Virus genome (UHGV): UHGV-0271208
Length of the DNA stretch: 25,010 nucleotides
From: a virus
Reading direction: 5' to 3' (one strand)
The first letter of the stretch is position 1; each line of letters starts with the position of its first letter. The translations under genes were made by a program, and so were the position numbers. The notes beneath the pieces are model-generated. The model was given only the letters and a program-made list of their open reading frames with translations, was not told the DNA's origin and did not search any database. Of this stretch, positions 2,725-24,575 are shown one piece after another.

Positions 2725-2791
2725 ATCAACCCCTTCATCATGATGGGGTACATCGTCGCCACGCGCGCGCGCATGAACAACGCCCCGTCAT

Positions 2792-4075: not shown

Positions 4076-4087
4076 CCGGGGGCGCTT

Positions 4088-4603: not shown

Positions 4604-4617
4604 GGAAACCCGGCACC

Positions 4618-4953: not shown

Positions 4954-5078
4954 AAGACCTGATGGCAGATATCGCCGTCATATTCCACTGGCGGCCGGTA
5001 GAGATGGACGCCATGACGGTACAGGAAATACTGTTATGGCGTGATCAGGCGGCTGCGCGCAGTGGTGGAGATCACTAA
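4618..5078 (+). CDS. E': E+E' fusion chaperone made by programmed -1 frameshift at T6G (4878-4884)
   Basis: The heptamer T_TTT_TTG sits in the zero frame at 4878-4884. The -1 frame stays open for 64 codons (ATLFGSDRDGYGQRIIRCPCERIEDLMADIAVIFHWRPVEMDAMTVQEILLWRDQAAARSGGDH) and ends at TAA 5076-5078, overlapping the T start as TAAATG. Same arrangement as the P2 E/E' frameshift. Confidence 0.6.
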
Positions 5079-8000
5079 ATGGCAGACCGCAATTTAAATA
5101 TCAGGGTGGCATTCAGCGCCCTGAATAATATGTCCCGCCCTGTCAACGCGGCGCGCCAGAGTGCCGCCGCGTTGGCGTCTCAAATCAATCAGACCAAAAC
5201 CAGCATTAAAGGGCTTGAGCGTCAGGCAACCAGCTTTGACCGCCTCACCGCAGCCAATAAAAAAACCACCGAACAACTGGCCCAGGCGAAAGAACAGGCC
5301 CGGCAAATGGCGGCGGCTTATGGCCCGTTACGCCAGCGCAGCGCCGAACAGGTTGCCGCCCTCAATCAGCAACGTGCAGCCATTCGCCAGTTAACCCAGC
5401 AGCAGAAAGGCGAGCAGACGCAGCTTAACCAGTTGCGCGCCAGCTTCTACAGCGAAGGCATTGCGATCAGCAGCGCCAGCCGGGCGACGGAACAGATCAA
5501 CCAGCGCACCGCGCAATACAACCGCCAGCTTGCCGAACAGCAGCGACGGCTTGACGCTGTTAACCAGGCGCAGGCCCGTTACAGCCGCGCCAAAGAAACC
5601 GGCGAAAAGATGATGAGCGGGGGGATGAAAACCGCCGCAGTAGGGGCGGCAACCCTCGCACCTGTCGCCGCTGCGGTTAAATCATACAGCAGCCTTGAAG
5701 ACGCCATGAAAGGCGTAGCCAAACAGGTAAACGGCTTGCGTGACGACAGCGGCAACCGCACCCCGCAGTATGAAGAAATGCAGCGGGCGATCATGGATGC
5801 CAGCGAAAAGCTACCAATGGCTAACGGCGCTGTTGACTATGCCGCCCTGGTCGAAGGTGGCGCGCGCATGGGCGTGGCAAACAGCGATGATCCGTGGGAA
5901 AAACAAAAAGCCGATCTGCTGGCTTTCGCCAGCATGGCGGCAAAAGCTTCGGTAGCCTTTGAACTGCCCGCCGATCAGCTTTCTGAAAGCCTCGGTAAGA
6001 TTGCCGGGCTGTATAAAATCCCTACCCAGAATATTGAACAGTTAGGCGACGCCATAAACTACCTGGACGATAACGCGAAGTCGAAAGGCTCCGATATTAT
6101 CGACGTGCTCCAGCGCGTTGGCGGACTTGCCAGCCAACTGGATTACAAGCAAGCCGCCGCGCTGGGTTCCACCTTCCTGACGCTTGGATCACCTGCCGAA
6201 GTTGCCGCCAGCGCAACCAATGCAATGGTGCGCGAACTATCGATCGCCACAGTACAAAGCGATAAATTTTTGGGTGCGCTGGATGAAATCGGCGTCAATG
6301 CTGAAAAAGTCCAGAAAAGCATGTCAGTGGACGCGATGGGCACGATCATTTCAGTGCTGGAAGCGTCCAAAAAACTTGCACCAGATAAGCAGGTAGCCAA
6401 CCTTACTCAGATTTTCGGTAAAGAGTTCGGCGATGATGCGCAGAAACTTGCGAACAACCTGCCCGAACTACGCCGCCAGATAGAACTGACGCAGGGCGCA
6501 GCCGCTAAAGGTTCCATGAATCGGGAATCTGATATCAATAAAGCGTCCCTTTCAGCTCAGTGGCAACTGACCAAAACCGGCGCGGTTAACGCATTGAGTT
6601 CAGCAGGGGAAACGCTCCGCGAACCGCTGATGGATATCATGCTTACCGTCAGTAAGGTGGTTGGCAGCGTCCGCCGCTGGGTTGAGGCAAACCCGGCTCT
6701 GGTTGGCTCAATCATGAAAGTCACCGCAGCCATAGGCGCGTTGCTGGTTGTCGTGGGTGGCCTGATGCTGACCATCGGCGCAGTGCTCGGCCCGATGGCA
6801 CTTGTTCGCCTCAGCTTCACCACGCTGGCTGGCTCCGGTGGGGTAACTCCCCTCATAGGCTCGCTGGGAAAATTATCCAGCACATTACGCGGGCTGATCC
6901 CCTCACTATCTGGCGTGGGCCGAAGTATTAAAGACTGGCCTGCCCTCTTCCGATCTGCTGCGTCTGGCATTACCCAATTTAGTAAACAAGCTATTGGCGG
7001 GTTAAACACAGCGTTAATGGCACTTTCACGCGGTGCTGTTGCTGCCGGACAGGGGCTATTTACCCTATTCACAAGGCCTATGACGGCTATAACCTGGCTT
7101 GGTAATGGCCTCAGAACTCTGGCGACCTCCGGTTTCGGCGCTTTGCTGAACGTTGGACGCACCGTAATGATGGCGTTGGGTGGCGGGTTATCATTACTTC
7201 TTAGCCCTATTGGAATACTGGTAATCGCTTTATCAGCAGCAGCGATCGCCGTTATTAAATTCTGGGAACCTATAAAAGCCTTTTTCACTGGCTTTTACAC
7301 CGGGTTAATGAGTGGCTTACAGCCTTTAACCTCAGCATTTAGTACAGCCTTTGCACCACTAGCCCCACTCTTTGACTCTATCGGTAATGCTGTCGGTGGC
7401 GTCTGGGAGTGGTTCACAAAACTATTCGAACCTATCCAGTTCTCCAGCGAAGCGCTAGCCTCCTGCACCAGTGCCGGGGAAACGTTCGGTAAGGTTGTAG
7501 GTAACGCTCTATCTGCATTAACACCAATAATCGAAGGAATAGCGCGCGGTATAGGATGGGTACTGGAAAAACTCGGCGCCATCCCCGACGCAACAAAAGC
7601 AGCGCAGCAAGCTGCGGAAAGTATGCACAAAGACCCTGTTGTCTGGGAGTGGGATCCGCAGCAAAAGAAAATGGTTAAAAAGGGTTGGAACTGGTCGCCG
7701 AAAGACGATCAGCAGAAGAAAACCAACCAGAAGCAACAGCAGGCCATTGACCAGCAGAAAAAGCAGGAAAGCTTAATTAACTCGCTCAAGGGCCCGGCCA
7801 ACATCGTGCCGAAGATGAGCAGCAGCCTGGATAAGATCGCCACCAATACCACGGAGAAGAAAGACGGCCCCGGCGAAATTGTCTTCAAGAATAAGCAGCC
7901 CTATATCCCGATCCGTGGCGGATATTCGGAACCGCTTAAGCAGGCACAGCGCCAGCTACCATCCCTTACCGATTGGGTGACGCAGCAGGCCGGATCGCTG

Positions 8001-8249
8001 ATCGCTTCCGTTACCCCCTGGCAGGTTGAGAAGCCCGCCGCACGGATGCCTGTTTCGGCGTCTCCGTCTGCGGCTTCCGTCGCTGCGCTGATGCCTGCTC
8101 CGGGTGGCGATGTATATAACCTTAACTTCGACTTTAGCGGCCAGAAACTGGATGAAGAAACCATTATCAGGCGCGTGCGCGAAGAACTTGCGTTAGCGAA
8201 GCAACAGGCCGACCGGCGCAAGCGCTCCCAACTGACCGATCACGTCTAA
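5079..8249 (+). CDS. T: Tail tape measure protein (P2 gpT-like), 1056 aa
   Basis: Long ORF right after E/E' with an Ala/Gln-rich coiled-coil N-terminal third, central Gly/Ala-rich hydrophobic segments and a Lys/Gln-rich C-terminal region; position and composition typical of tape measure proteins. Confidence 0.9.
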   Translation: MADRNLNIRVAFSALNNMSRPVNAARQSAAALASQINQTKTSIKGLERQATSFDRLTAANKKTTEQLAQAKEQARQMAAAYGPLRQRSAEQVAALNQQRAAIRQLTQQQKGEQTQLNQLRASFYSEGIAISSASRATEQINQRTAQYNRQLAEQQRRLDAVNQAQARYSRAKETGEKMMSGGMKTAAVGAATLAPVAAAVKSYSSLEDAMKGVAKQVNGLRDDSGNRTPQYEEMQRAIMDASEKLPMANGAVDYAALVEGGARMGVANSDDPWEKQKADLLAFASMAAKASVAFELPADQLSESLGKIAGLYKIPTQNIEQLGDAINYLDDNAKSKGSDIIDVLQRVGGLASQLDYKQAAALGSTFLTLGSPAEVAASATNAMVRELSIATVQSDKFLGALDEIGVNAEKVQKSMSVDAMGTIISVLEASKKLAPDKQVANLTQIFGKEFGDDAQKLANNLPELRRQIELTQGAAAKGSMNRESDINKASLSAQWQLTKTGAVNALSSAGETLREPLMDIMLTVSKVVGSVRRWVEANPALVGSIMKVTAAIGALLVVVGGLMLTIGAVLGPMALVRLSFTTLAGSGGVTPLIGSLGKLSSTLRGLIPSLSGVGRSIKDWPALFRSAASGITQFSKQAIGGLNTALMALSRGAVAAGQGLFTLFTRPMTAITWLGNGLRTLATSGFGALLNVGRTVMMALGGGLSLLLSPIGILVIALSAAAIAVIKFWEPIKAFFTGFYTGLMSGLQPLTSAFSTAFAPLAPLFDSIGNAVGGVWEWFTKLFEPIQFSSEALASCTSAGETFGKVVGNALSALTPIIEGIARGIGWVLEKLGAIPDATKAAQQAAESMHKDPVVWEWDPQQKKMVKKGWNWSPKDDQQKKTNQKQQQAIDQQKKQESLINSLKGPANIVPKMSSSLDKIATNTTEKKDGPGEIVFKNKQPYIPIRGGYSEPLKQAQRQLPSLTDWVTQQAGSLIASVTPWQVEKPAARMPVSASPSAASVAALMPAPGGDVYNLNFDFSGQKLDEETIIRRVREELALAKQQADRRKRSQLTDHV

Positions 8250-8258
8250 GGCAATATC

Positions 8259-8708
8259 ATGATGATGATTCTGGGGATGTTCCCCTTTTCACTGCAAACC
8301 ACACCTTACCAGAGTGCGAATAAAACCAACTCCTGGCGGCACGTCAAAAACGATCGCGTGGGGAAATCCCCGCGCTATCAGTTCATCGGCGCAGATGAAG
8401 AACCGTTCGTACTCAGCGGCACGCTGTACCCCGAAATAAGCGGCGGTGATGTGTCGCTTGTCATGCTGGAAACTATGGCTTTTTCCGGGCGCCCGTGGCC
8501 CCTGATAGAAGGCACGGGCAGGATCTACGGCATGTATGTAATTGAGCAGATCACGCAAAACCGGACGGAGTTTTTTAAGGACGGGAAGGCAAAGAAAATT
8601 GATTTCACGCTCAACCTGAAACGGGTAAGCGAGGACATACGGGAAAAGCTGGCTGAAACCACCACCGACGATCTCTTCTCTCTGGTGAAAACCAACCTTT
8701 CGATATAA
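8259..8708 (+). CDS. U: Tail protein (P2 gpU-like)
   Basis: 149-aa ORF 10 nt after T; size and position match P2 gpU. Confidence 0.8.
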   Translation: MMMILGMFPFSLQTTPYQSANKTNSWRHVKNDRVGKSPRYQFIGADEEPFVLSGTLYPEISGGDVSLVMLETMAFSGRPWPLIEGTGRIYGMYVIEQITQNRTEFFKDGKAKKIDFTLNLKRVSEDIREKLAETTTDDLFSLVKTNLSI

Positions 8709-8710
8709 GA

Positions 8711-8738
8711 AAAGCGGGCCATTGCCCGCTTCGTCTTC
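8711..8738 (+). terminator. Possible terminator after U
   Basis: Stem AAGCGGGC/GCCCGCTT at 8712-8731 with loop CATT, followed by CGTCTTCC (a weak U-tract). Confidence 0.4.
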
Positions 8739-8814
8739 CGTAATACACCACCATAACTGACCGTGCTACAGCACCGTTAAAAGTGACCGTACTCGATACA
8801 CACGGCCAGCACGG

Positions 8815-9141
8815 TTATAACCGGCCATGCGTGCCGGAATTCTTATCTCTGGTCGCTGGGAATTTTTTGTAAAGCGTAGATATCCCAACATCATAAATTA
8901 TGGCAACCCTCCGGCGCGATTCCCCTGCCGCTATTAACCTACCCGCCTGCGCCCATTGTTCTGGTGTAAGTTTGGGACGTCGTCCACCAATTCGTCCCTG
9001 TGCGCGAGCAGCTTCCAGGCCAGCTTTTGTTCGTTCAACAATCAGTTCTCGCAGGGTCTGAACGTAAGGCGAATCCTGGGAGTCGGTTCTTACTGCATCC
9101 TTTTCACTGGGGCTTGATGGGCCCAAGCGTGGATCACTCAC
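8815..9141 (-). pseudogene. Truncated serine DNA invertase (Cin/Gin/Hin/Pin family); C-terminal HTH part only
   Basis: 108-aa ORF with RELIVERTKAGLEAARAQGRIGGRRPKLTPEQWAQAGRLIAAG...VAIIYDVGISTLYKKFPA, which matches the C-terminal half of Hin/Gin-type invertases. The ORF begins at GTG and no catalytic N-terminal domain is found in any frame upstream (9141-9524). Confidence 0.7.
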
Positions 9142-9524
9142 GCGTCAGTGAGTGGAGCGCGTGTCTCAATAATGACCTCGAGCGTTTTGTCGATATTTTG
9201 GAGAGTCAGATTGAGCTCAGTAAGAGCCGCAATGAGTGGAAGGAGGTTATCTCCGCCGCCACCATAGCCAATGCCTCCACAGCTCTGGATTGGGGGATGG
9301 TTCACGAGGTTGCCGCCGCCACTTACCCGCAGGCACCCGGCACATACTGGTGGATTAACTGTTAACATAATTACCTCTCAAATTTAAATTGGGCAGAGAT
9401 GCCAGCATCCAGGCTCGCGCCTGGACGATTGTCTGATGATGAAAAGTGCAGTTTAATCTGTGGCTGGATTATCTGGATGCACTGGAGCTGGTTGATACCT
9501 CCAGTGCGCCAGATATTGAATGGC

Positions 9525-9935
9525 CTACTCCTCCGGCAGTTCAGGCCAGATGACATCCGGTGCGGTGCTGGTATCTGTTGCCGTCACAGCGTCGATATAA
9601 TCCAGCACAGCGTTAAGTCGGGTAGTTTCTTCTTGCGTCAGTTTACGCCCGGCCTGCAGCTTTAACTGAATCACGCTGATATTGACCATTGCTGCGTCTA
9701 ACAGCGACTGTTTTTTCTGTTCAGCATCAGCTACCAGTTCATCATGAGAACGTTCCGGAGGGAGCGGCGCAGTAAATACCCCGTCTGAATACCCCCAGCC
9801 AATTCCGGGATGCTCACTGATATCAGAAATATCAATGAGCTGCTGATTATCCGGCACTGTGAATTCAGCCTCGCCATCCCAGACAATGACATTCACAACC
9901 ATCTCATTTTCAATAACTGCATATGACGCATTCAT
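9525..9935 (-). CDS. Tail fibre assembly protein (Tfa; P1 U / P2 G-like)
   Basis: ORF 9525-9959; the likely start is ATG 9935, overlapping the fibre stop as TAATG, giving MNASYAVIENE. The C-terminal APDVIWPELPEE resembles tail-fibre chaperones. Confidence 0.85.
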   Translation of the reverse strand: MNASYAVIENEMVVNVIVWDGEAEFTVPDNQQLIDISDISEHPGIGWGYSDGVFTAPLPPERSHDELVADAEQKKQSLLDAAMVNISVIQLKLQAGRKLTQEETTRLNAVLDYIDAVTATDTSTAPDVIWPELPEE

Positions 9936-12649
9936 TATGCAAACTCCTCGATAATACAAATCCCATCAGCACCTTTCCCGCCTGTCATACTGGTTCCGCT
10001 ATAACCGGCATCGTATGCGCCACCGCCACCTGAACCATATGCCTTACCACTAACACCACCGCCAGCGCCTGCGCGTCCACCGCCCCCCCAGTACGATGTT
10101 CCGCCTTCACCGCTGACGCCGATATTTCCGGACTGACCGTCGCCACCATTTCCACCAGTGATGCTGATATCGCCAGTACTCGGCACACCTCCGTTACCGC
10201 CGTTTGTGTTTGTGGTTCCTACTTTTCCGGCACCTTCGCCACCGATAGCAATTAACGATGCGAACGAACTATAGCCGCCATTAAGGCCGTAATTTGCTCC
10301 AATACCACCGGCTCCACCTGCGCCGATAGTGACTGGATAACTATTCTGTGTCGGGGTCATTATTGAAATTATTGTTCCACCGGCCCCGCCGCCAGCACCG
10401 AAAAACGTTTCATTATTGGATATAGCCTGGCAGCCGCCCCCACCACCACCGCCACCCGTTATTGTGACCCTGATCCGTTTTGTTCCTGGGGTTGGGGTAT
10501 ACGTACCTGATGAAGTGAAAACCTGGGTATTCACCAAACGCCCAACATATCCGCTTGAATCGCTCAGGCCAAGGTTAGCAGCAGTTAAAGTAATATTTGC
10601 AGAACCATCAAACTTAACACCGTTGATAGTGCGTGCAGTCTGTAGTTTCGTTGCGGTTGCGGCATTACCGGTAGTGCTCTGATTACCTGCTTTATTCACG
10701 CCCGGCAGGTCGATATTGGCACTACCATCGAACGACACTCCGCCGATTGTGCGTGCTGTTTGCAGTTTTGTGGCGGTGGATGCATTACCTGTCAAAGATC
10801 CACTAAGAGCCACGGCACTAAGAGACTTAACACTTACATCCTGACCCCATCCGGAAACAACAACCTGACTCCACGCTGCCCAGCTTCCATTAACAACAAA
10901 GCGAACGTATATACGTTTTGTGTCGCTGTTAATCAGCGTTTGCATGTTCGCATAATCTGATCCCGTAGTCTTACGAATCGACTCTACACGAACCAAAAAG
11001 TTACCGCTTACGCCGTCAGGCTTATTGGTAATATTTGCACCACCTGCGACAGTTTTGCATTGATAGTATTTAACGGATCCAGCTTCTGTATTAGCAATAA
11101 TCAAGTCGTTTAAATCAATAGTCCGGCCGTCAATGGCTTCCGGCTCGATGGCTCCTGCTATCCCGGCACTGAATGTGGCAGCGGCTGAAAACGCTGTCTT
11201 ACCTTTGAAAGTCTGTTGAGAACTCCAGGTATTAGCTGTGCTCAACAGGGGGATCTTTTCGCCGCTGGTTCCGATTTCTCTTAAACCAAGGTATTGGATA
11301 ACAGCCAGTGTGCTTGTTTTAGCCAGGATATCGCGACCGACTGACGTTAAATCAGTCTGGGAAACAGTGTCTGTACCGGTAAAGTACGGCAATTTATTTG
11401 CGCCTGTCGCAAGACCAGCAAGCGCGGTTAAAGTTGCATCCAGAGGCTGTTTGCCTGCCAGCGCATTTGTCATTGTTGTCGCAAAGTTCGGGTCATTGCC
11501 CAGTGCTGCTGCAAGCTCATTCAGGGTATCAAGAGCTTCAGGTGATGAGCCGACCAATGCAGAGATAGCAGCTCTTACATAAGCGGTCGTAGCAATCTGC
11601 GTGTTATTCGTACCCTGTGCAGCGGTAGGCGCAGTAGGTATTCCCGTTAATGCAGGACTTGCTAAAGGAGCTTTAAGAGCCAGAGCATTGTTGATAGTTG
11701 TGCTGAAATTCGGGTCGTTATTGATCGCAGCAGCTATTTCTTTAAGCGTATCCAGAGTGCCAGGTGCACCGTTGATAAGTGCCGTTATAGCTGCCTTAAC
11801 AAAGGCTGTATTTGCGATCTGCGTGCTGTTTGTACCTTGCGCTGCCGTCGGCGCGGTTGGCGTTCCTGTCAGACTCGGGCTTTCTATTGGCGCTTTGGTA
11901 TCAGCCAGCTCTTTTACAGACTTAACGGCTTTAGGGGTAGCCGCCATTGTTTCGCTGTCGCTGTTAGTTGCGCTACTGAGCTGAACTAATCCCTTTTGTG
12001 TTGTGCTTGCATCCTGCGCCGTATACTTGCTTTTAGCCAGATCGTAGGCTTTTTTAACCGCCAGCGAACTTGCAGCGACATCACTTCTGGTACTGGTTAC
12101 AGAGTCGGAAATTTCAATGCCTATCGCGAGATCGATGCGGTCGGATACATCTATCATTTCCTTAGTAATAGCAGATACGCCAGCAGGGATATTCACCGTA
12201 CAAACAAGCAGTTCTCCATCTCCTAACTGATATGAATCGGTATAGGTTCTGGCAACAAATTCAGCCGCATGAATATGTGACGCGGTATTAACCTGATAAG
12301 AATCTTCTCCAAGGAGGTATCTTCCCTTCAGCACAATTGCATATTTCTTACCTGCGCTAAGTGCAAGAGAAATATCCTTACGCTGCTGAATAGTTACCTG
12401 GTAGAATTCACCAATATTCACTGACGCCGCGCCAGCGGTTTTATCACCATCCACTGAGGTGATTAACAGGTTCATCCCACCGCCAGGCTTAGGAAAAAAA
12501 CCGGCATAAAATCCAGGGTCAACAATTCCCCTGAATTTTCGGTTTAGCGCGGCTGACAGATATGGTTCGTGGTATTGCACATCAGCCACCAGAGCCAACG
12601 ACTCGGGTGATGGGTAAGTAACCGATGTGACAACTGTAACGTCATTCAT
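9935..12649 (-). CDS. Long tail fibre protein (P1 S-like) with Gly-rich C-terminal domain
   Basis: Contains repeated tail-fibre motifs (GLVQLSSATNSDSETMAATPKAVKSV, TGTPTAPTAAQGTNSTQIANTAFV, ALDTLNELAAALGNDPNF) and a C-terminal Gly-rich domain including GGGGGGGG. Likely start MNDVTVV at 12649 with AAGGA SD; the ORF track extends to 12736. Confidence 0.85.
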   Translation of the reverse strand: MNDVTVVTSVTYPSPESLALVADVQYHEPYLSAALNRKFRGIVDPGFYAGFFPKPGGGMNLLITSVDGDKTAGAASVNIGEFYQVTIQQRKDISLALSAGKKYAIVLKGRYLLGEDSYQVNTASHIHAAEFVARTYTDSYQLGDGELLVCTVNIPAGVSAITKEMIDVSDRIDLAIGIEISDSVTSTRSDVAASSLAVKKAYDLAKSKYTAQDASTTQKGLVQLSSATNSDSETMAATPKAVKSVKELADTKAPIESPSLTGTPTAPTAAQGTNSTQIANTAFVKAAITALINGAPGTLDTLKEIAAAINNDPNFSTTINNALALKAPLASPALTGIPTAPTAAQGTNNTQIATTAYVRAAISALVGSSPEALDTLNELAAALGNDPNFATTMTNALAGKQPLDATLTALAGLATGANKLPYFTGTDTVSQTDLTSVGRDILAKTSTLAVIQYLGLREIGTSGEKIPLLSTANTWSSQQTFKGKTAFSAAATFSAGIAGAIEPEAIDGRTIDLNDLIIANTEAGSVKYYQCKTVAGGANITNKPDGVSGNFLVRVESIRKTTGSDYANMQTLINSDTKRIYVRFVVNGSWAAWSQVVVSGWGQDVSVKSLSAVALSGSLTGNASTATKLQTARTIGGVSFDGSANIDLPGVNKAGNQSTTGNAATATKLQTARTINGVKFDGSANITLTAANLGLSDSSGYVGRLVNTQVFTSSGTYTPTPGTKRIRVTITGGGGGGGGCQAISNNETFFGAGGGAGGTIISIMTPTQNSYPVTIGAGGAGGIGANYGLNGGYSSFASLIAIGGEGAGKVGTTNTNGGNGGVPSTGDISITGGNGGDGQSGNIGVSGEGGTSYWGGGGRAGAGGGVSGKAYGSGGGGAYDAGYSGTSMTGGKGADGICIIEEFA

Positions 12650-12660
12650 CAAGCATATCC

Positions 12661-13095
12661 TTATGCTGTAGTCGTGTTTATGGCCATAACTGCGGTATAT
12701 GTTTTGCCCACATACAGCGAGTCTTCCTGGACACAAATAATGGCGATTGGCTTGTTCTCGTTATCCAGAACAACCAGAGTGTTGAATGGGTAGTTTTTCC
12801 CTTTCTGCAACTGGCTTTGATCAAGGTCCATTCGGACAGTAATTATCCCGCCTGAGTAGGTTGGGACGAGGTTGATGGTGCAAAATTTACTGGTCAGTTC
12901 TGCCAGCTCGAAAGCCTTTGGCAGTTCTCCAATCTCATAAGTGCCATCTCCTTTCTTAGTAACCAGTGAACTGGTACCGAAAACGGCCTTGCTGATTAAA
13001 AATCGAGAGCCTTTGTTAATGGACGATTCAGCGCGCCGCTGATAGTAATAGTCCAACAACTGACTCTTATAGAGGTTTGTTGAGACGTCAGACAT
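12661..13095 (-). CDS. Tail-fibre-associated structural protein (position of P1 R)
   Basis: 144-aa ORF ending 12 nt before the fibre start. Assignment is by gene order only. Confidence 0.55.
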   Translation of the reverse strand: MSDVSTNLYKSQLLDYYYQRRAESSINKGSRFLISKAVFGTSSLVTKKGDGTYEIGELPKAFELAELTSKFCTINLVPTYSGGIITVRMDLDQSQLQKGKNYPFNTLVVLDNENKPIAIICVQEDSLYVGKTYTAVMAINTTTA

Positions 13096-13173: not shown

Positions 13174-14013
13174 TCAGGCGTCGCTATCCAGCAACAAATC
13201 ATCTGCGCGTGTGCGATCAAACGTAGGTGTCGCTTTCACAATAGTGCCACCAGGCGTTGCGGTGATCGGGGCGCTAATCGACGTAACTCCAGTAAGCGAA
13301 GTTGTATCCGAAGTTTCAAACCAGCAGTACGCTTTTTCGGTATCAGAAATCTCGTTCAAAGTGATCATGTCGGCCTGTTCATTCACAACAACCGACAAAT
13401 AGAGCGTAAGCCCATCAAACACTATATGCAGTGGCAGTAGAGGCTTTACGAACTGATTAAACTTTCTGAGAATTTCTTCTGTAATTGCGGACTGATCTAT
13501 CGTGCCAGTAATACCCATTGTCCGGGCCAGGTCGTTTATGGGAATACTGATCATCCCTCTGGAAGTCAGAAACATCTCACCGAATGTGCCGCCGGTAGTT
13601 TCCAGTGTGCTTTCTGGTATTAGAACTGTGCCATAGGGATGACGTTCAAGGTCCACCGGTGCATATATCGGATCCCATAAAACAGAAATACCATTAAATT
13701 CGCGGTAAATTGTCTGGTTTATAGGGCGTTCAGTCCCCTTAAAGTGAATCTCATCAAGCCGCTGTTGTAACAACATCGGAACGGAAGATGAGTTTGAGGT
13801 TCTGATAGTAAAGAACTGGCCAAGTTCATTTGTCCTGGTCTCCAGATCCTCCTTGCTCATGGAAAAAATAGACTTCCGGTTGGTAATTCGCTCCAACCAT
13901 GGGTCAACAAAGGTGTCCATCATTGACTGAACCAAATCAGCCAATGATTTATAGAGCAATGACTTTTGCTTAGCTGATGTAAGCCGATTATTAAACCAGG
14001 AACGTTGCATCAC
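13174..14013 (-). CDS. Baseplate or tail structural protein (position of P1 gene 16)
   Basis: 279-aa ORF whose start overlaps the upstream stop by 4 nt. Assignment is by gene order. Confidence 0.55.
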   Translation of the reverse strand: MMQRSWFNNRLTSAKQKSLLYKSLADLVQSMMDTFVDPWLERITNRKSIFSMSKEDLETRTNELGQFFTIRTSNSSSVPMLLQQRLDEIHFKGTERPINQTIYREFNGISVLWDPIYAPVDLERHPYGTVLIPESTLETTGGTFGEMFLTSRGMISIPINDLARTMGITGTIDQSAITEEILRKFNQFVKPLLPLHIVFDGLTLYLSVVVNEQADMITLNEISDTEKAYCWFETSDTTSLTGVTSISAPITATPGGTIVKATPTFDRTRADDLLLDSDA

Positions 14014-15443
14014 TCCTCCTCATACGAAATATTAAAGGTGGAGTTTTCTGTATCCAGATAAACGAAATCGTAAAAGCCGTTGGACTCATTCCACTCGACA
14101 AATTCCAGATAAAAGTCGCGGAAATAACCCAGCGTTTCGATAAATGCCCAAACGTCTTTTTTCTTGATCAGGATGTACTTGCCGACACCGTTCGGATCAA
14201 AGAAATTTGAGTCGCGCCCAAATTTTGTTTCCAGTGCCGACTTCAACTCATCAGTCACGTTCTCAATAGTCAGGCTTGCCGATATCCGCCCGGTGATGGT
14301 TATCTTAAATGGTAGTTTTCTGACCTCTTTATAAGAGAATTTCTTGTTCAGTTCATTCGGTACCTTCTTAAAGGCAGTCAGGATCATTTCTTCAAGCTCT
14401 GACTGGCTTTTATTTGGATGCCATCCTGAAATAAATATCTTATTGATATTCTGAACATTATAAGCACCATCTAATTTCTCTTGCTGGCCTTCGCCCCATG
14501 CCTTTACCCAGGACAGCCCAGGGATGTTACGAACCAGAAAATACGTATAGTCCCCGCCCCATACGACCTGATCATCATAGGCAAGGTAATATTGTGCACG
14601 GTTACGTGTGATCTCCGTTGTTTCAGCATCGGTACCTGCGGTTATAGGTGTCGTTGTCTTAACTGAAATCAAATTAGCTAAATTAGCCGCAGAATCGACA
14701 GGCGTCAGGTTTTGGCCAGCAACCAGGGTTATATCGCCGTTGGTGCACCATACCTTAAGCGTAATTGTCGAACCTTCTGGCGGTATTTGCCCAATTAGCC
14801 CATCGCCGAATCGAACCCCCAACTGCTCGGATGGTTTATAAAACTCAACGTAGACCTGGCTTTTACTACCGGCTAACCGGAACATAGTGCTGGAAGACCA
14901 CTGCGTGGTCTTACCATCGGTCGTCACGAATACTTCCAGCTTATAGCAGACAGCAGTAAGAGCCTTTGATAACACGACTTCCAGAAATTCTTTGGCTGCC
15001 GTAACGGTATATGTCACCTCCTGGATTTCCAACTGTGCCACTTCTACCGTACCGGTGCCGTCAACCAACCTGCATACATCCATAGTCATGTAAGGGTACT
15101 GGTCGTCAGATATTAAAGGCATGTTTTTGGGGATTACCGCTGGAGCATCTTCACTTGTGGCGGTGATCTCAATCATCCCCGATGACGGTGTTGGCTTGGT
15201 ACCAACGTAACTATTCGTTTCTGCCGCTGCCAGGATAGAGGAACGCCGCGTCGCGGTCGATATAAAGCCTTCAGCCAGCGCCGCATCGGCATACTGAAAG
15301 CACCTGTAGACAATCTGGGTAATAAACAATGTCAGCATCGAGACAAATTGAGAGCCGACAAACTTCGACCAGAATGAATCTTTCTCGACAAGCTCTTCAA
15401 ACTCTGCACGAATACTGTCTTTAGTCGGTGTTGTTTTACTCAT
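14010..15443 (-). CDS. Baseplate protein (position of P1 bplA)
   Basis: 477-aa ORF translationally coupled to both neighbours by 4-nt overlaps. Assignment is by gene order. Confidence 0.55.
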   Translation of the reverse strand: MSKTTPTKDSIRAEFEELVEKDSFWSKFVGSQFVSMLTLFITQIVYRCFQYADAALAEGFISTATRRSSILAAAETNSYVGTKPTPSSGMIEITATSEDAPAVIPKNMPLISDDQYPYMTMDVCRLVDGTGTVEVAQLEIQEVTYTVTAAKEFLEVVLSKALTAVCYKLEVFVTTDGKTTQWSSSTMFRLAGSKSQVYVEFYKPSEQLGVRFGDGLIGQIPPEGSTITLKVWCTNGDITLVAGQNLTPVDSAANLANLISVKTTTPITAGTDAETTEITRNRAQYYLAYDDQVVWGGDYTYFLVRNIPGLSWVKAWGEGQQEKLDGAYNVQNINKIFISGWHPNKSQSELEEMILTAFKKVPNELNKKFSYKEVRKLPFKITITGRISASLTIENVTDELKSALETKFGRDSNFFDPNGVGKYILIKKKDVWAFIETLGYFRDFYLEFVEWNESNGFYDFVYLDTENSTFNISYEEE

Positions 15444-15799
15444 AGCACCACGTCCTGTGTGATAGTTATATCCCTGATACGAATGGATATTTTCAACTTA
15501 TCAAAAGCATCTCCCTCGGCTACTGACAAGCCAGAAATCGGTATGTCAGGTAAATCTACCGTCAGTTTTTGCAACAGCATTGCCTCAACCGCAATTTGAA
15601 CATGCGACAAGTTGGTCGGTTCGTGTTTAAACTGCGGTAAAACATTGCCCCATGACGGATCTCCGTATACCTCACCCTGATAAGTGTTTAGCCACTCATA
15701 TAAACGAGCGCCCCAGGCCTCCTCCTGGGACTCATACGTTTTTACGCCGGATAACTCCAGCGTCAGCAAAGGATCAATTTCGTTATTGTTGGCCATCAA
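15440..15799 (-). CDS. Small morphogenetic protein (position of P1 pmgA)
   Basis: 119-aa ORF overlapping the stop of the Sit-like gene by 4 nt. Confidence 0.55.
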   Translation of the reverse strand: MMANNNEIDPLLTLELSGVKTYESQEEAWGARLYEWLNTYQGEVYGDPSWGNVLPQFKHEPTNLSHVQIAVEAMLLQKLTVDLPDIPISGLSVAEGDAFDKLKISIRIRDITITQDVVL

Positions 15800-18700
15800 T
15801 CAACTCTCGCGTAGTCATTCATCAACGGATCATCAATTGACAGTGGTACCGTGCGCATAACGCCCGGCTGAGGCGTGCTGACCTTTACGACAGTTCCCTG
15901 GCCTTTCGCCGAGTCTTTGGTGTGCTCTTCAATCCTGGCAAGCAATGAGGTCATCTGCGCAAACAGCCGCTTCGTTTCACCATCAAGTGAAACGGTATTA
16001 TCAGCCAACTGCATTGTCGGCTTGGCACCGGAACCGCCAAGGTCACTAATAACCTGCCCGTCTATCTGCATACGACCGGTTGGTTGCTGCAAATCGTTGG
16101 CGGCAGTCGTCACCTTGGACGTGGAGGCTGGTTCAGTCGCATTATTTTTCCGCATCCCCGGCGAGTTGCGGAGTTTATCGAATAGTCCATCAATCCCCAT
16201 TTGTGCGCCGAGTTGGTCAAAGTAACTTGAGTTGCTGGCCACCGGACGCGCCTCTTCAACTGGCATCGGAGTATCAACATACACATTGCCAGCTGCTGTT
16301 GCGGTCCCCTTCCCTCGTGCACGTTCTTCGAGCGTTCCCTGAACGACTTCCCGACGCATACCCCGGCCATTCATGAATTTGTTGACCAGATCGTTAACGC
16401 CAACAGCATTGCCGATTTTGTCTACCAGACCGCCTTTCTCAAACGGGCTATCACCAGGGGTAAACGCCAGGCCAGTAGACTGATCGATAACAGCGTTATC
16501 AGGCAGTGGTCCCCTCACTCCATATTGCGCCCCACCCTGTGCTCCTGCTCCAGGTGTATAGATTTCACCACCTAAATAGCGAGCACGATGAGTATTGACC
16601 TTGATCGCGTACTCACGGTTTTCTTTCGATAAGTCACCTGTGCCTTTTTTCCACTTATTGATAGTGCCAAACCCAGCGTTATATGCAGTGATGGCCTCGT
16701 TTAAGTCTCCATTGGCTTGCTTCAGATACTTGCTCATGAGAAGAGCCGCAGCTTCTGCCGATTTCACAGGATCAAACGATTCACCTTCAGCTAAGCCAGT
16801 CTCTTCACGAGCAATCCCCGTGAACTGAAACATTCCCAGAGCACCGGTTTGGGATTTTGCATACGGATTACCACCAGATTCAGTTGCAGCAATCGCGTAA
16901 AGAGTGCCTTCTGGAAGACCATATTTATTCTCTAGTTCAGCAAAATACGGAGCCAACTTATCGAGATTTGCCTTACCTTCAGATCCAAGACTTCCGACTT
17001 TTACATCCAAGCGGCCATTGTTGTAGGTATCCGCAGCTTTCTGAATGTCATTCCTGGTGCCAGTGGAATTAAGCGACGATGATGACGAGCTATTTTGACC
17101 AATAGCTTTATCAATTTTCTGCAACGCGCTATTGCCCGTTTCTACGGCATTTGCATTGATAATCTGATTCGCAGTTTCTTTAACTGTTTTATTGCTATCT
17201 TTCGCCGTGTCCAGTGCCGCATTTATCACGCGGGTAACAATATTAGTCTGTTTGGCATCGGATTCAGTTTTAGAATCAGATGTCTCCTGGTGGCTATTAA
17301 CCGGAGCTTTTAACTCTGGAGTGATTTCTTTCGCATTAGCCTCGCCGATCGGATTGGGTATTTTTGATACAATCATTGCCGCAGGGGTATTTTTAACGGC
17401 ATCAACCGCTGCATCTAATGCTTTACCAGGTAAATTTTTAACCCCATCCCAAATATTACCAGCCGCCTCTTTAATGTGTTTCCCTGGGTTCTTAATGAAA
17501 TCAATTGCACTATCAATTGCATCACTGAAAACCTGTTTCAGGTTATCAACAGTAAAGAAGTCTTTGATGGCATCCAGCTTTTCAAGCAGCTTATTAGATG
17601 TATCGCTAAACCATGCTGAAACAGCATCACCAATCTTTGCTGTGTAATCTTCGAACTTGGTAGAAATGGTGTCGCCAAGGTTAGAAATATATGTTTCTAA
17701 GTTGGTAATCCCACTATCAATGGCCTGGGCAATACTTTCCGTCGAAAATGATTGCAACATATTGCCGATATCCTCAAATCCAAGTGATTTGAGAACCTCA
17801 CCAATGGCGCTGCTAATACCAGATACCAGTCCCCCCATATCAAGAACATTGGCTAACGTATAAGCGGCTTTTTGCTGGAATGATGGATCTTGTCCTGATT
17901 TAAGCCCAAACGCTCGACGTTGCGCTTCTGTATCATTCCAACCGGTTACCGCATCATAAATACCTCCAGCCACTGTGCCGACTAAGGGAATTGCGCGTAA
18001 CGCCCCTTTACCAACTGCCTTTAATCCAAGTTTACCTGCTGCCCGGGCAGCCAAATCTCCACCTTCATGGGCGATAGTCTTCTTGCCACCACCGCGTAGC
18101 ATTCCTACAAGTTTCTTTGCCCCCAGAGCGCCAAAAGCGAGTGCTCCAGCTTTTTTCAGCATGCCACGCCCCATTAACAACGACGCGACGCCACCGGCCC
18201 CCTTCCCTAACAGGCTAAATAGTTTGGACAGCAAGCCGCCCTTCTTTTTCCCGGTGTTTTTGGCTATCTGATCAAGGGCGCTGAGAATCTTGTCATTGCC
18301 CTCTTTAATTTCGCTGGTCTGCTCCTGAAGTTCCTGAACTGTCCGTTTTTGGGTGTTAACCTGAACGACATCGGCACTATTTTGCGATTTACGCCTAAAA
18401 AAACCTTTTCTACGGCTGTTATCGTCATTGCCACGAATCACATCGGCAATAGACTTTCTGGCACCATTAAGCGATCCACCAACTTCTTTTGATATCCCGC
18501 CAAGCTCCTTCCCTGCTGCCCACAATGGACCAGCAACGGCATAACCTAACGCATCAACGGCACGAGTCTCTGAAGGGTTACCTATGCCTTCAGCTACTTT
18601 TGACAGTTTTTTTAATAAACCTGATTCAGCATTTAGACGCTCATCATCCTCTTTGCGCCTGGCCTTTTCAGCACGTTCAGCACGGGCATCTTCCGCTGCG

Positions 18701-19485
18701 GCCTTACTCCCTGACTTTCCAATAAAACGACCACGCGCATCGCGTTGGTTTTGGCTTTTTTGCGCACCGCCTTTTTGATCGAACATTTCGCGAGCGTGTT
18801 CGGCTGCTTCGGTCCGTTGTGCCTTTATATCCTCTGGTATAGCCTTCCTGCGTCGTTTTTTACCCTTTGGTGTAGTTGATTTGGCCTGCTGTTCCTGTTG
18901 AGCAATGCCCTCCTGAACTACACGAGAAACGTCCCCTAAATTAAGCCGTTTCATTGCGTCAACAATAGGGTCTACTGATGGCGCATTGGCCACAAAGTCT
19001 GGCCGGGAATTTTCGATTGTTCGATTTAATGCCGACACACTGCGAGATACTGGGTCAACCGTTGCAACGCGTTCCCCTTTCAAATCACGAGCGAGTTTGA
19101 CCGTTTCTAACCGCTGTGCTTTAACATCCTCTGTTATTGCCTCTCTTCGTCTATTTGGGGGATTGTGCGCTGTTGGTGCAGCCTGCTGTTCACGGTTAGT
19201 GACTTTGTCCTCCCGTATACGAGAAACGTCCCCTAAATTAAGCCGTTTTATTGCGTCAACAATAGGGTCCACTGATGGCGCATTGGTCACAAAGTCAGGA
19301 CGTGAATTTTCGATTGTGCGATTTAATGCCGACACACTGCGAGATACTGGGTCAACAGTTGCAACTCGTTCCCCTTTCAAATCTTCAACAGCTTCCCGAA
19401 TACCTGCAAGCTCTTCCAGCTCTTTCGCGCTGGCGGTTTCAACTGTCCTTATAACATCGTCAATATTGGCGTTTTTTCTTTCCAT
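15796..19485 (-). CDS. sit: Sit-like structural injection transglycosylase / tape-measure-like protein with SLT domain
   Basis: 1229-aa ORF with a lytic-transglycosylase motif (LPEGTLYAIAATESGGNPYAKSQTGALGMFQFTGIAREETGL), Gly/Ala/Lys-rich hydrophobic segments and an N-terminal tandem duplication. Size and neighbours match P1 sit as recalled. Confidence 0.8.
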   Translation of the reverse strand: MERKNANIDDVIRTVETASAKELEELAGIREAVEDLKGERVATVDPVSRSVSALNRTIENSRPDFVTNAPSVDPIVDAIKRLNLGDVSRIREDKVTNREQQAAPTAHNPPNRRREAITEDVKAQRLETVKLARDLKGERVATVDPVSRSVSALNRTIENSRPDFVANAPSVDPIVDAMKRLNLGDVSRVVQEGIAQQEQQAKSTTPKGKKRRRKAIPEDIKAQRTEAAEHAREMFDQKGGAQKSQNQRDARGRFIGKSGSKAAAEDARAERAEKARRKEDDERLNAESGLLKKLSKVAEGIGNPSETRAVDALGYAVAGPLWAAGKELGGISKEVGGSLNGARKSIADVIRGNDDNSRRKGFFRRKSQNSADVVQVNTQKRTVQELQEQTSEIKEGNDKILSALDQIAKNTGKKKGGLLSKLFSLLGKGAGGVASLLMGRGMLKKAGALAFGALGAKKLVGMLRGGGKKTIAHEGGDLAARAAGKLGLKAVGKGALRAIPLVGTVAGGIYDAVTGWNDTEAQRRAFGLKSGQDPSFQQKAAYTLANVLDMGGLVSGISSAIGEVLKSLGFEDIGNMLQSFSTESIAQAIDSGITNLETYISNLGDTISTKFEDYTAKIGDAVSAWFSDTSNKLLEKLDAIKDFFTVDNLKQVFSDAIDSAIDFIKNPGKHIKEAAGNIWDGVKNLPGKALDAAVDAVKNTPAAMIVSKIPNPIGEANAKEITPELKAPVNSHQETSDSKTESDAKQTNIVTRVINAALDTAKDSNKTVKETANQIINANAVETGNSALQKIDKAIGQNSSSSSSLNSTGTRNDIQKAADTYNNGRLDVKVGSLGSEGKANLDKLAPYFAELENKYGLPEGTLYAIAATESGGNPYAKSQTGALGMFQFTGIAREETGLAEGESFDPVKSAEAAALLMSKYLKQANGDLNEAITAYNAGFGTINKWKKGTGDLSKENREYAIKVNTHRARYLGGEIYTPGAGAQGGAQYGVRGPLPDNAVIDQSTGLAFTPGDSPFEKGGLVDKIGNAVGVNDLVNKFMNGRGMRREVVQGTLEERARGKGTATAAGNVYVDTPMPVEEARPVASNSSYFDQLGAQMGIDGLFDKLRNSPGMRKNNATEPASTSKVTTAANDLQQPTGRMQIDGQVISDLGGSGAKPTMQLADNTVSLDGETKRLFAQMTSLLARIEEHTKDSAKGQGTVVKVSTPQPGVMRTVPLSIDDPLMNDYARVD
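18922..19383. repeat. Intragenic direct repeat: two 165-bp copies (18922-19086, 19219-19383), about 93% identical, period 297 bp
   Basis: Compared base by base: about 11 mismatches in 165. Because 297 bp is 99 codons, the repeat is in frame and encodes the duplicated peptide RVATVDPVSRSVSALNRTIENSRPDFV.NAPSVDPIVDA.KRLNLGDVSR. Confidence 0.85.
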
Positions 19486-19566
19486 GATCTTATCGCCTAC
19501 CGTTTCGGTTTAAGTTTTTCTTCCAGTTTCTCCAACAGGAAAAACGCATAGGATTCAGTAAGCCTT

Positions 19567-20448
19567 TCAGCGTCCTGAATCGGTATACCCCCATACAAAA
19601 CCAGGTTGGACACTAAGGTCTGATAGCTTTTCAATCCCCACCTGTGGAATGAAGTCGGTAGCCCGAAAGGGCACCCACAGACGGGTATATGCACCCTCTG
19701 TGGACTCCTTTTTATCCTGATTTGGGCATTTATGCGGCGGGAGACGAAGACGCATTTCACCTTTATCGATGTAGCACGGTAAACCATGTTCGAGCTTTTC
19801 ATGAGCCAGTCGGATGTGTGCCGCCAGCTTCATAAATTCAGTATCAATGGCCATCCGTTTAATCGTTTCATAACGACGCTCAGCCTGATCTTCACGAGTA
19901 CCACTAACATCGTTATAAAGCTCACACTGATAAGCGAATTCCCAAAAACGCAAATCAACGATCGCTTCTTTGAATTCCGCGTCGTCTTCAGGTGGCAATG
20001 CTGCACGGCGCATCTCCAGCATTTCCATTGCCCAACCATCAAGCGGCACGATACGCCATTGATAAGGTACTCCCTCTACAGGCACCTCAATATCGTCAAT
20101 GAACGGTTCCACTTCCAGGACCTGGATATCTTCAGCCAGAGCATTCATATCGCAATCGTAATAATGCTCTTTACCGCAATGTTTACAGGTGTAGGTGAAT
20201 GTCTCGACCGGTGTTTCACGGGAGCCGGTAAATATCCACCATAACGCGGTAATCCGGTCCTGCGCCGTCCATGTCAGGGGATCATGTTTCGCGGGTTCAG
20301 CCAGCAAGGCTTTTAAATACGCCGTTGTCTGTTGTTCTTGTTCCTCCGGTGTTATCGAGTTGAAACGCATCGCATCAGCAATATTTGGCTGACGGAACTG
20401 GATCAATTCAGTTGGCCGCGATGGTAGCGGGAAAAGGGGTAAAAGCAT
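19567..20448 (-). CDS. Hypothetical phage structural/morphogenesis protein (position of P1 pmgB)
   Basis: 293-aa ORF just upstream of the Sit-like gene; contains CKHCGKEHYYDCDM, a possible metal-binding motif. Confidence 0.6.
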   Translation of the reverse strand: MLLPLFPLPSRPTELIQFRQPNIADAMRFNSITPEEQEQQTTAYLKALLAEPAKHDPLTWTAQDRITALWWIFTGSRETPVETFTYTCKHCGKEHYYDCDMNALAEDIQVLEVEPFIDDIEVPVEGVPYQWRIVPLDGWAMEMLEMRRAALPPEDDAEFKEAIVDLRFWEFAYQCELYNDVSGTREDQAERRYETIKRMAIDTEFMKLAAHIRLAHEKLEHGLPCYIDKGEMRLRLPPHKCPNQDKKESTEGAYTRLWVPFRATDFIPQVGIEKLSDLSVQPGFVWGYTDSGR

Positions 20449-23008: not shown

Positions 23009-23204
23009 GTATTTTTAAGTCGCGAATGCTATCTTTTCGCATCATATTGACCTTTTAATCGTTCAGGCTTATAGTTCCGCCGTCGTAGCAAATTCTGCGA
23101 CCGGGTTTAGCAGCCTGAATGTTAGTGCGGACAACCGCAGATATCCGATATTGCGGTATTTTTGTGTCCGTAAAACCGCGTTACGCCCAAATTATGGTGG
23201 GGCG

Positions 23205-23275
23205 TGATGGGGAGGCTTCGGCCTGCTGGTTTCACTAACGCCAGTCTGCTAACCCCGTCACGTCCTGCCACCTGT
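23205..23275 (+). ncRNA. c4: c4-like antisense RNA (ImmI-type repressor of icd/ant translation); boundaries approximate
   Basis: CACTAAC (23233-23239) and CTGCTAAC (23246-23253) are complementary to GTTTAGCAG / GTTAGTG pairs at 23105-23127 and 23274-23311, the second overlapping the icd-like SD. This mirrors the P1 c4 a'/b' versus a1/b1 and a2/b2 layout. Confidence 0.4.
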
Positions 23276-23322: not shown

Positions 23323-23544
23323 ATGGTTAATGCCAATCCTTGCGCACGCCAAGAATTCATCTGGCGTTTCTATTCCTGTAAAAAACACCACTATCACTTC
23401 GTTATCGCAGCAACAGAAGACGAAGCACGCTCTCAATTGCCTGATGGCCCCTGCATTTTTACTGCCCGTTTTTCAACTAACTCGCGCAATTCACTTAGTT
23501 ACTGGAGCCTCCCCTTCTCTGCCGACGTTCAGGGGGGTTTATGA
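23323..23544 (+). CDS. icd: Icd-like small protein (73 aa) translationally coupled to ant
   Basis: 73-aa ORF with GAGG SD 8 nt upstream; its stop overlaps the ant start as ATGA. P1 icd is also 73 codons and overlaps ant. Confidence 0.5.
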   Translation: MVNANPCARQEFIWRFYSCKKHHYHFVIAATEDEARSQLPDGPCIFTARFSTNSRNSLSYWSLPFSADVQGGL

Positions 23545-24575
23545 AAACACCTCTCGTCACCCGTAATGAAATAGCCGAAGCGATCGCCTTGCATACAATC
23601 TGTATGCCGACACGGGAGATCCCCGGCGCAATTGCCAACTATTTCATGATAACCAGGCGTTTTTATACCCGAACAGATAAGGCTGTGATCAACAGGCTAC
23701 TGATAGCCGAGATCAGGGATTATTTGATTGAACAAGGACGTCTACGTTACGCAACAGTGGCAGCAGAAATGAGAAAGGAGGCACATAGAATGACCGGTAA
23801 TAATTTAAATGTTGAAAAACCAGCACCTGTTGCTTCAGCTACGCCAGCACCAGCCCTGAATGTCATCCCCAACACCGGAGACACAATCGACAGCCAAACA
23901 TTGTTGAAGATGGTCAATGAGGCACGGAAATTATGTAGCGAAAAACCAGTTCGCAACAATGATTTCATTGCCAGAGTTAAGGATGAGCTTGAAGGAGAAA
24001 CCTACGAAATTTTCGTAGGTCAAAAAAACGGCGCAGAAATAGATATTATAACCATGACCTACAAACAAGCCCTGCGAGTTGCCGCGCGCGAGTCAAAAGC
24101 GGTCCGCCGTTCGCTGATCGACAAACTGGAAGAATTACAGCAGGCAAACTCCCCTACCCCATCGATCCCCCAAACATTACCAGAAGCCCTACGCCTGGCT
24201 GCCGAGTTGGCAGAACAGAAAATGCATCTGGAACAACAGCTGGTGGCCGCAGCACCTAAAGTCGATTTTGCCGACCGGGTATCAGTGGCTAATGGAATCC
24301 TGATCGGTAACTTTGCAAAGGTCGTTGGACTTAAGCAAAACGCCCTTTTCTCATGGTTGCGCCAGAACGGCATTCTCATGGCTTTTGGTGCGCGCAAAAA
24401 CGTACCGCGCCAGCAGTACATTAACGCCGGGTATTTCACGGTGAAAGAAGTGGTGCTGGATGATGAAAATGGCTATCAGATACGGCTGACGCCACAATTA
24501 ACGGGTAAAGGCCAGCAGTGGTTAACTCGCAAGCTACTTGATGCTGGTTTGTTAAAACCAGTAGCAATAGGTTAA
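23541..24575 (+). CDS. ant: Phage antirepressor (Ant-like)
   Basis: 344-aa ORF whose C-terminal region (FADRVSVANGILIGNFAKVVGL...RKNVPRQQYINAGYFTVKEV...QIRLTPQLTGKGQQWLTRKL) resembles antirepressor C-terminal domains; sits downstream of the operator and c4-like elements. Confidence 0.8.
   Translation: MKTPLVTRNEIAEAIALHTICMPTREIPGAIANYFMITRRFYTRTDKAVINRLLIAEIRDYLIEQGRLRYATVAAEMRKEAHRMTGNNLNVEKPAPVASATPAPALNVIPNTGDTIDSQTLLKMVNEARKLCSEKPVRNNDFIARVKDELEGETYEIFVGQKNGAEIDIITMTYKQALRVAARESKAVRRSLIDKLEELQQANSPTPSIPQTLPEALRLAAELAEQKMHLEQQLVAAAPKVDFADRVSVANGILIGNFAKVVGLKQNALFSWLRQNGILMAFGARKNVPRQQYINAGYFTVKEVVLDDENGYQIRLTPQLTGKGQQWLTRKLLDAGLLKPVAIG

Follow-up and report, generated by a model that had tools for sequence, protein, structure and literature searches.

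A copy-number-variable tandem repeat in sit, the predicted tape-measure gene of P1-like phages

Internal duplication and loss in the genes of tape-measure proteins (TMPs), with an effect on the length of the phage tail, are already established. In the TMPs of TP901-1, lambda (gpH) and T4 (gp29), in-frame duplications or deletions scale the tail length by 0.145-0.15 nm per amino acid (aa). For TP901-1, where the step was 0.145 nm per residue, tails became proportionally shorter or longer after in-frame deletions in the TMP and an N-terminal duplication, respectively, and the duplication caused no loss of titre; the authors suggested that repeats in TMPs may facilitate natural duplication and deletion (PMC5099701). 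Here, we present the analysis of a tandem repeat in the gene sit of a P1-like element, found in a stretch of 25,010 nucleotides (nt) of the UHGV virus genome UHGV-0271208, which is referred to as the window. The repeat consists of 99-codon units, of which the window carries two and its relatives one, two or three. We are highly confident of its anatomy, its polymorphism and the footprints of recombination in it, taken without any effect on the tail. The whole proposal, in which a copy-number-variable tandem repeat in the P1-family tape-measure gene also lengthens the tail, has in our judgement somewhat better than an even chance of being right.

The closest described protein is Sit of phage P1, annotated in the P1 record (AAQ14011.1; P7 AAQ07509.1) as [quoted passage not shown]. 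It was found in P1 virions by liquid chromatography with tandem mass spectrometry (LC-MS/MS) and was argued to be the tape measure on the grounds of its size, the predicted, mostly helical nature of its N-terminal two-thirds, and the presence of hydrolase domains in the tape measures of T5 and TM4 (Gonzales et al., PMC9024508). According to this analogy, T5 pb2 and TM4 Tmp share with Sit a long ruler-like N-terminal part and a peptidoglycan hydrolase domain near the C-terminus (PMC9024508), but they differ in phage morphology and in hydrolase type, Sit being likened to them through its Pfam match to the SLT domain. Sit is essential as judged by CRISPR interference (CRISPRi; PMC10695390). In a study by cryo-electron microscopy (cryo-EM) it is called the TMP yet was not resolved, with low-resolution density seen in the hub (PMC12810830). 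The trunk of the P1 tail is composed of 53 rings with a rise of about 40 Å (PMC10304247). A Sit with two units has already been deposited in GenBank for phage phi456 (WNL49372.1). This phage is spontaneously released, forms plaques on MC1061 and shows myovirus particles; the paper describing it does not discuss the array, and the word “tail” is missing from its text (PMC10967188). A full-text literature search found no paper describing the sit repeat or its copy-number polymorphism.

In the window, sit is the largest open reading frame (ORF) of the minus strand. The features of the gene are as follows.

15796..19485, minus strand: sit, P1-family structural injection transglycosylase and predicted tail tape measure; intact ORF of 1229 aa (ORF list, translation).
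19384..19485, minus strand: unique N-terminal 34 codons before the array (MERKNANI...REAVE), invariant in P1, P7, phi456 and the window.
19087..19383, minus strand: repeat unit A, sit aa 35-133, missing from P1, P7 and SJ46.
19219-19383, minus strand: core of unit A, 55 aa.
19087-19218, minus strand: tail of unit A, 44 aa, IREDKVTNREQQAAPTAHNPPNRRREAITEDVKAQRLETVKLAR.
18790..19086, minus strand: repeat unit B, sit aa 134-232, orthologue of the single unit in P1, P7 and SJ46.
18922-19086, minus strand: core of unit B.
18790-18921, minus strand: tail of unit B, VVQEGIAQQEQQAKSTTPKGKKRRRKAIPEDIKAQRTEAAEHAR.
16618..16947, minus strand: SLT lytic transglycosylase domain, sit aa 847-956 (Pfam PF01464, E=9.9e-27).

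A repeat search detected a single large direct repeat, 18875-19086 versus 19172-19383, with a spacing of 297 nt. The period of 297 base pairs (bp) corresponds to 99 codons, and the units lie head-to-tail with the reading frame open through both. Their cores, the first 165 bp, are alike at 156 of 165 positions (94.5%), and their tails, the last 132 bp, at 61% of the DNA positions and at 19 of 44 residues of the protein (43%). Since the 132-bp stretch between the two cores is the diverged second half of unit A and no unrelated spacer, the array is a complete in-frame tandem of two 99-codon units. It is far beyond chance, as the best self-diagonal score of sit is 138 and 30 codon shuffles averaged 12 and did not exceed 15. 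Each unit is thus composed of a conserved 55-aa core followed by a fast-evolving, charged and proline-containing linker of 44 aa, the tail. When unit B was searched by phmmer in 1.84 billion representative proteins, only the Sit family was found to carry the unit. Two matches outside Sit were discarded, one being a chimeric gene call (P0001) and the other a spurious match to a repetitive Gram-positive surface protein (P0004). The former, a protein of 1009 aa in the representative library, begins in the A tail, spans the whole B unit and ~120 further Sit residues, and turns to unrelated sequence at KELGGI, as would a recombinant or mis-assembled contig.

The assignment of the gene to sit, and of the right-hand half of the window to a P1-like (Punavirus) element, follows from the SLT domain, the match to PHROG 2533, the nucleotide identity and the gene order, all read from the sequence. 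The PF01464 match lies in the C-terminal third of Sit and reaches 93.3 bits against a cut-off of 21.3. The profile phrog_2533 matches with E=0, Sit aa 133-1229 being aligned to profile positions 34-1130, and a second matched stretch in Sit presumably corresponds to the duplicated unit. At the nucleotide level, sit is 96-97.6% identical to its counterparts in P1, P7, JL22 and RCS47 and, apart from a 297-bp insertion, collinear with those of the first three; its span in the P7 and JL22 records is exactly 297 bp below that in the window. The gene belongs to the tail and baseplate operon, where it is flanked by pmgB and pmgA/bplA as in P1, P7 and phi456, and the window ORFs at 19567-20448, 15440-15799 and 14010-15443 follow in the same order as there. 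It is the same protein as P1 and P7 Sit by identity (96-97%), SLT domain and this place, from which it differs by an extra 99-aa unit A after residue 34 (1229 versus 1130 aa in P7). The phi456 protein shares the two-unit A-B array and differs by a few substitutions in the units and by a more divergent background (94.6% across sit).

An earlier note on this DNA had proposed an in-frame 99-codon duplication in the N-terminal region of a Sit-like protein, and this is borne out by the translation of the ORF, the SLT domain, phrog_2533 and the identity to P1 and P7; its expectation that the repeat lengthens the protein holds to the residue, at exactly 99 aa over P7 Sit. It had also described two 165-bp copies of about 93% identity, 297 bp apart. 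The copies and their spacing stand, but the identity is 94.5% and the 132 bp in between belong to unit A as its tail. The extent of the duplication therefore has to be revised: the 165-bp cores are alike, and the unit as a whole appears to be an old 297-bp tandem with a diverged second half (synonymous divergence dS about 1) rather than a fresh one.

Among relatives, copy number varies. By protein alignment, one unit of the B type is present in Sit of P1 (1140 aa), P7 (1130 aa) and SJ46 (1137 aa), and two units, A-B, are present in phi456 Sit (1231 aa) as in the window. A distant Sit homologue with 42% identity (P0022) also contains one unit. In the plasmid database PLSDB, the sit region was found in 479 plasmids, of which 137 (29%) carry the A tail at an identity of at least 97.7%, and seven contain the succession A-tail/core/A-tail, the query by which three-unit alleles were counted. 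The survey of 5426 complete E. coli genomes revealed sit in 470 (about 9%), with the A tail at an identity of at least 95% in 198 (42% of carriers) and three units in eight. The A-A-B arrangement is confined to a minority of relatives, the three-unit share of sit carriers in these two collections being ~1.5-2%, and no record has more than two A tails. Taking two A-tail places per record as a three-unit count was rejected because it over-counts, as in NZ_CP029117.1, which has two such places yet a two-unit sit. Among 83 fetched scorable loci (77 from IMG/VR and six phage records), 20 have two units and 63 one, with the frameshifted phage records L004 and L006 scored as one unit and found by a nucleotide check to have two (L004) and three (L006). 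None of the 77 IMG/VR loci has three units. The two-unit array is present in about 20 IMG/VR contigs, and a protein identical to the Sit of the window is encoded on five independent contigs.

Three-unit ORFs that are intact measure 1322-1340 aa, with the frame open through three units in the loci L087, L094 and L093, and no compensating length change was found elsewhere in Sit among alleles with one, two or three units. In two three-unit alleles from Hangzhou (L088, NZ_CP060921.1; L089, NZ_CP102674.1), one G is missing in AGAAAAGGTTTTTTT at about codon 460 of sit, which causes a frameshift and a stop at codon 505; judged from the sequence, this may reflect a true pseudogene or else a sequencing error in a homopolymer that both records share. 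RefSeq mishandles repeat alleles by starting sit after the array or by splitting the gene. In L090 (NZ_CP031654.1, 1234-1932), sit is annotated from a Met past the array (MFDQKGG) though the 233 upstream codons are an intact ORF, and in L093 (NZ_CP195583.1, 3734-7702) an intact three-unit ORF of 1322 codons is split into a “partial” pseudogene and a shorter coding sequence (CDS).

The additional units carry traces of how they arose. Every unit of every fetched allele was scored as A or B core type at the nine positions that distinguish the cores of the window, and all middle units of three-unit alleles proved to be recombinant, ending in an A tail. The middle unit reads bbaaaaaaa in L093 (cattle, China), with the crossover at core nt 45-64; bbbbbbbab in L087 (Senegal), L094 (Houston) and L006 (prophage 813R1), with the crossover at core nt 97-112; and bbbbbbbbb in L088 and L089, with the crossover at core nt 135-164. 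Because these are three distinct intervals, a single origin of all three-unit alleles was rejected, and two-unit arrays must have grown to three units on at least three occasions, each time inside the core. The one-unit allele L079 has a fully A-type core joined to a B tail, which is the reciprocal kind of product. In addition, the cores of the A units in L029 and L004 are in part of the B or the ancestral type, and L023 combines an A unit with a B unit of the SJ46 type. These patterns are exactly the outcome to be expected when a B core and an A core cross over unequally, and the middle units and L079 are footprints of repeated unequal homologous recombination within cores. Between the cores of the window, the identical runs measure 38, 30, 20, 17 and 16 bp. 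Runs of this size are short but of an order usable by RecA-type recombination.

The flanks of the array were compared as well. Mean distances within and between copy-number classes are about equal, so that the classes are not separated; the flanks of some two- and three-unit alleles are identical to those of one-unit alleles, and the array occurs on many different flanking haplotypes. Frequent recombination among P1-like elements would give this pattern, as would repeated gain and loss of units, or the two together. Copy number shifts by unequal homologous recombination between the 165-bp cores. The expansion and contraction that the earlier note had foreseen thus find support in one-, two- and three-unit relatives and in recombinant units at the junctions, and one- and three-copy variants, which it had suggested seeking, are present among relatives. 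The same two copies in all homologues, which it had named as a sign of an old fixed feature, were not what was found: P1, P7 and SJ46 have one unit and others three.

Core and tail of the unit differ strongly in their histories. Between A and B, the proportion of synonymous differences pS is 0.16 in the core (dS 0.18, nonsynonymous divergence dN 0.017) and 0.54 in the tail (dS 0.96, dN 0.45), and the step in divergence lies exactly at unit nt 165. Constraint at the nucleotide level was considered as a cause of the likeness of the cores and rejected, because in a set of 49 distinct one-unit alleles the core, at 0.093, is no less diverse at third positions than the tail (0.071) and the N-terminal segment (0.077). 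The simplest reading has an old duplication or the import of a foreign unit as its starting point, the A linker being old or foreign (dS about 1 to the B linker). Recombination among the cores themselves and with the cores of one-unit alleles would then continually have kept them about 95% alike, and the tails would be too different to pair. The A tail is at least 97.7% identical in all plasmid carriers. A donor of the A linker was not found by tblastn in 50,697 phage records, where matches had either at least 96% or about 52% protein identity at most, with none between; a word-indexed protein search yielded one distant homologue with a single unit and otherwise mostly incomplete pieces of Sit.

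What the extra units do to the particle depends on the role of Sit. With phi456, which forms plaques and shows myovirus particles, a two-unit Sit is compatible with infectious particles, so the two-unit protein works. If Sit is the ruler, it would lie in the lumen of the tube, its N-terminus pointing to the head and its C-terminal end, which bears the SLT domain, placed at the baseplate, and each extra unit would delay the termination of the tube and lead to a longer tail. At 1.5 Å per residue, a 99-aa unit would contribute about 15 nm, equal to 3.7 rings; with the apparent 1.86 Å per residue of P1 (2120 Å / 1140 aa), the figure would rise to about 18 nm and 4.6 rings. Overall, about 4-5 rings per unit would be added to the 53 of P1. 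As an analogue, the TMPs of the TP901-1 type have repeats of 11 or 18 aa, belong to siphophages and were altered in length by engineering, whereas Sit has a 99-aa unit, a contractile tail and a natural series of one, two and three units; no sequence similarity of Sit to these TMPs was found by PHROG profiles or by phmmer of unit B. By this analogy, we regard an effect of the extra units on tail length as slightly favoured.

Several points weigh against it. The ruler role of Sit is putative, being a prediction from the literature (PMC9024508). Among Pfam profiles, SLT is the sole match of Sit and no tape-measure profile was found, and its PHROG matches comprise unknown function, endolysin, transglycosylase and lytic tail protein but no tape-measure family; in contrast, the P2-like T protein in the same window does match tape-measure PHROGs. 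A length of 1140 aa at 1.5 Å gives 171 nm, less than the roughly 212-nm trunk, so P1 falls outside the simple helical-ruler rule and the increment per unit is uncertain. The array starts just 34 residues from the N-terminus of Sit, and in the TP901-1 TMP the first 154 residues have a role in assembly and about 127 add no length (PMC5099701), so that by analogy the units could sit in a part of Sit that does not measure. An AlphaFold2 model of sit aa 1-370, made from a shallow alignment, is uninformative, with a mean predicted local distance difference test (pLDDT) of 43.7, a predicted template-modelling score (pTM) of 0.17, and helices broken by coil within the units. The frameshifted lineage of L088 and L089 is uninformative on whether three units work. 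Tail lengths or ring counts for two- or three-unit phages were not found in the literature, and in the same search no tail measurements were reported for phi456, 673R5 and 813R1. As a separate observation, the fit of Sit length to the P1 tail in PMC9024508 assumed a tail of 120 nm, and the tail measured by cryo-EM is 245 nm (PMC10304247).

The main rival, to which we give a real but clearly smaller probability, is a neutral length polymorphism. The N-terminal units would be a flexible, non-measuring segment that is trimmed or finds room in the tube lumen or in the region of the neck or terminator, and copy number would drift without effect on tail length or infectivity. The TP901-1 residues that add nothing to tail length speak for this explanation (PMC5099701), as do the start of the array at residue 35 and its pLDDT of about 30-37 in the AlphaFold2 model. 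It is further favoured by the fast evolution of the linker (dN/dS about 0.47), by a diversity over all codon positions of 0.053 in the tail as against 0.036 in the core, and by the occurrence of one-, two- and three-unit alleles on similar backgrounds with the rest of Sit unchanged in length. On the other hand, purifying selection acts strongly on both copies of the core (dN 0.017 versus dS 0.18), so each unit is a constrained piece of protein. To our knowledge, there is no TMP that gains about 9% in length without a change of the tail. Moreover, the N-terminal duplication in the TMP of TP901-1 did alter tail length proportionally (PMC5099701).

In another, improbable explanation, the 55-aa core would serve as a module that binds a partner, which could be the putative chaperone PmgB, the tube protein or gp24, the terminator; the number of units would tune the efficiency or stoichiometry of assembly instead of spacing passively. 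This would agree with the high conservation of the core protein across alleles next to a freely varying linker, with the restriction of the unit to the Sit family in the phmmer search, and with the position of pmgB directly upstream, the product of which was proposed to be the TMP chaperone of P1 (PMC9024508). The partner is putative, the AlphaFold2 model is unusable for the question, and a binding module is compatible with a ruler, so the two are not strictly exclusive.

A role at the DNA or RNA level, such as an antisense gene, an array of binding sites or a regulatory RNA with the peptide duplication being incidental, is largely refuted and can be considered essentially excluded. An antisense ORF of 175 aa (18986-19513, plus strand) does overlap the array, but it has no PHROG match, and a scan of 18600-19700 revealed no promoter-like sites. 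Three terminator-like stem-loops in the same region, with 1.3 expected by chance, are all outside the array; two of them are a single inverted repeat at 18733-18745 counted on each strand, and the third lies at 19458-19471. In the whole window, Rfam matched only at 23069-23275 (C4 antisense RNA and a1/b1 target), the P1 record annotates CDS alone here, the synonymous diversity of the core is not reduced, and all units keep the sit frame. Finally, an assembly or sequencing artefact, for which nothing speaks beyond the odd P2/P1 joint elsewhere in the window, is excluded: the independent complete plasmids and genomes in which the same array occurs number in the hundreds, and a sequenced phage that forms plaques has it too.

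Returning to Sit as a ruler, a bolder form of the idea, which we put forward tentatively and regard as rather unlikely, is that P1-like phages possess a natural quantised tail-length switch. Tails of about 53, 57-58 or 62 tube and sheath rings would arise through recombination of the cores, and the classes would be kept as different tail lengths suit different host envelopes. If true, the allele series would allow the ruler of an ultra-long contractile tail to be calibrated directly for the first time, in Å per residue. Relatives of P1, itself a classic model phage, are found widely as phage-plasmids in Enterobacteriaceae. At 53 rings, the P1 tail is of exceptional length, and the length of its predicted tape measure departs from the rule of 1.5 Å per residue. 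Natural alleles that differ by +99 and +198 residues bear on whether Sit is the ruler, on the Å per residue and on whether the extreme N-terminus counts. For the typing of P1-like plasmids by sit length, three size classes are to be expected.

The genes adjoining sit in the window are the following.

19567..20448, minus strand: pmgB, directly upstream of sit; phrog_1854; same position in P1, P7 and phi456.
15440..15799, minus strand: pmgA/bplB homologue, directly downstream and overlapping the sit stop codon; phrog_1896; same position in P1 and P7.

The left part of the window, 1-10300, is a P2-like (Peduovirus-type) tail module, and its joint to the P1-like part lies somewhere in 10300-10593. 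The following features belong to this module or to the joint.

1606-2724, minus strand: D-like gene of the P2-like module.
2882-4075: sheath gene of the P2-like module.
4088-4603: tube gene of the P2-like module.
4618-4953: gene E of the P2-like module.
5079-8249: tape-measure gene (1056 aa) of the P2-like module.
8259-8708: gene U of the P2-like module.
8815-9141, minus strand: truncated Cin/Pin-type invertase gene between the P2-like U and the tail-fibre assembly gene.
9935-12736, minus strand: hybrid tail-fibre gene carrying the P2/P1 joint.

Four E. coli chromosomes contain P2-like prophages that match the region 7800-10300 at 99.5% identity, and the prophage examined, in NZ_CM129865.1, adjoins fieF/pfkA. 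In the matching chromosomal prophages, the invertase is annotated as a “recombinase family protein” and pseudogene, and about 540 bp more are present at this place. P1-like plasmids match the window only from 10593 rightwards, and the P2/P1 joint was found in no PLSDB plasmid. The N-terminal part of the tail-fibre protein resembles P1 S, with 99% identity to P1-like plasmids from 10593, and its C-terminal part is 99.5% identical to a stretch of chromosomal P2-like prophage with an annotated tail-fibre gene. The assemblies of contigs with an exact Sit match tend to break in the tail-fibre gene. One of them, the contig of GCA_040693585.1 with the identical Sit protein, ends inside it, which suggests that assemblers break or mis-join there. 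The joint may be real, the P1-like element having recombined or integrated with a P2-like prophage, or it may be a chimera that the assembly formed over a tail-fibre repeat common to both.

Towards the right end of the window, the P1 immI region is present in canonical form.

23069-23121 and 23190-23275, plus strand: C4 antisense RNA and a1/b1 target element (Rfam, 70 bits for C4 and 55.5 bits for a1/b1).
23541-24575: Ant antirepressor gene, following C4 and a1/b1.

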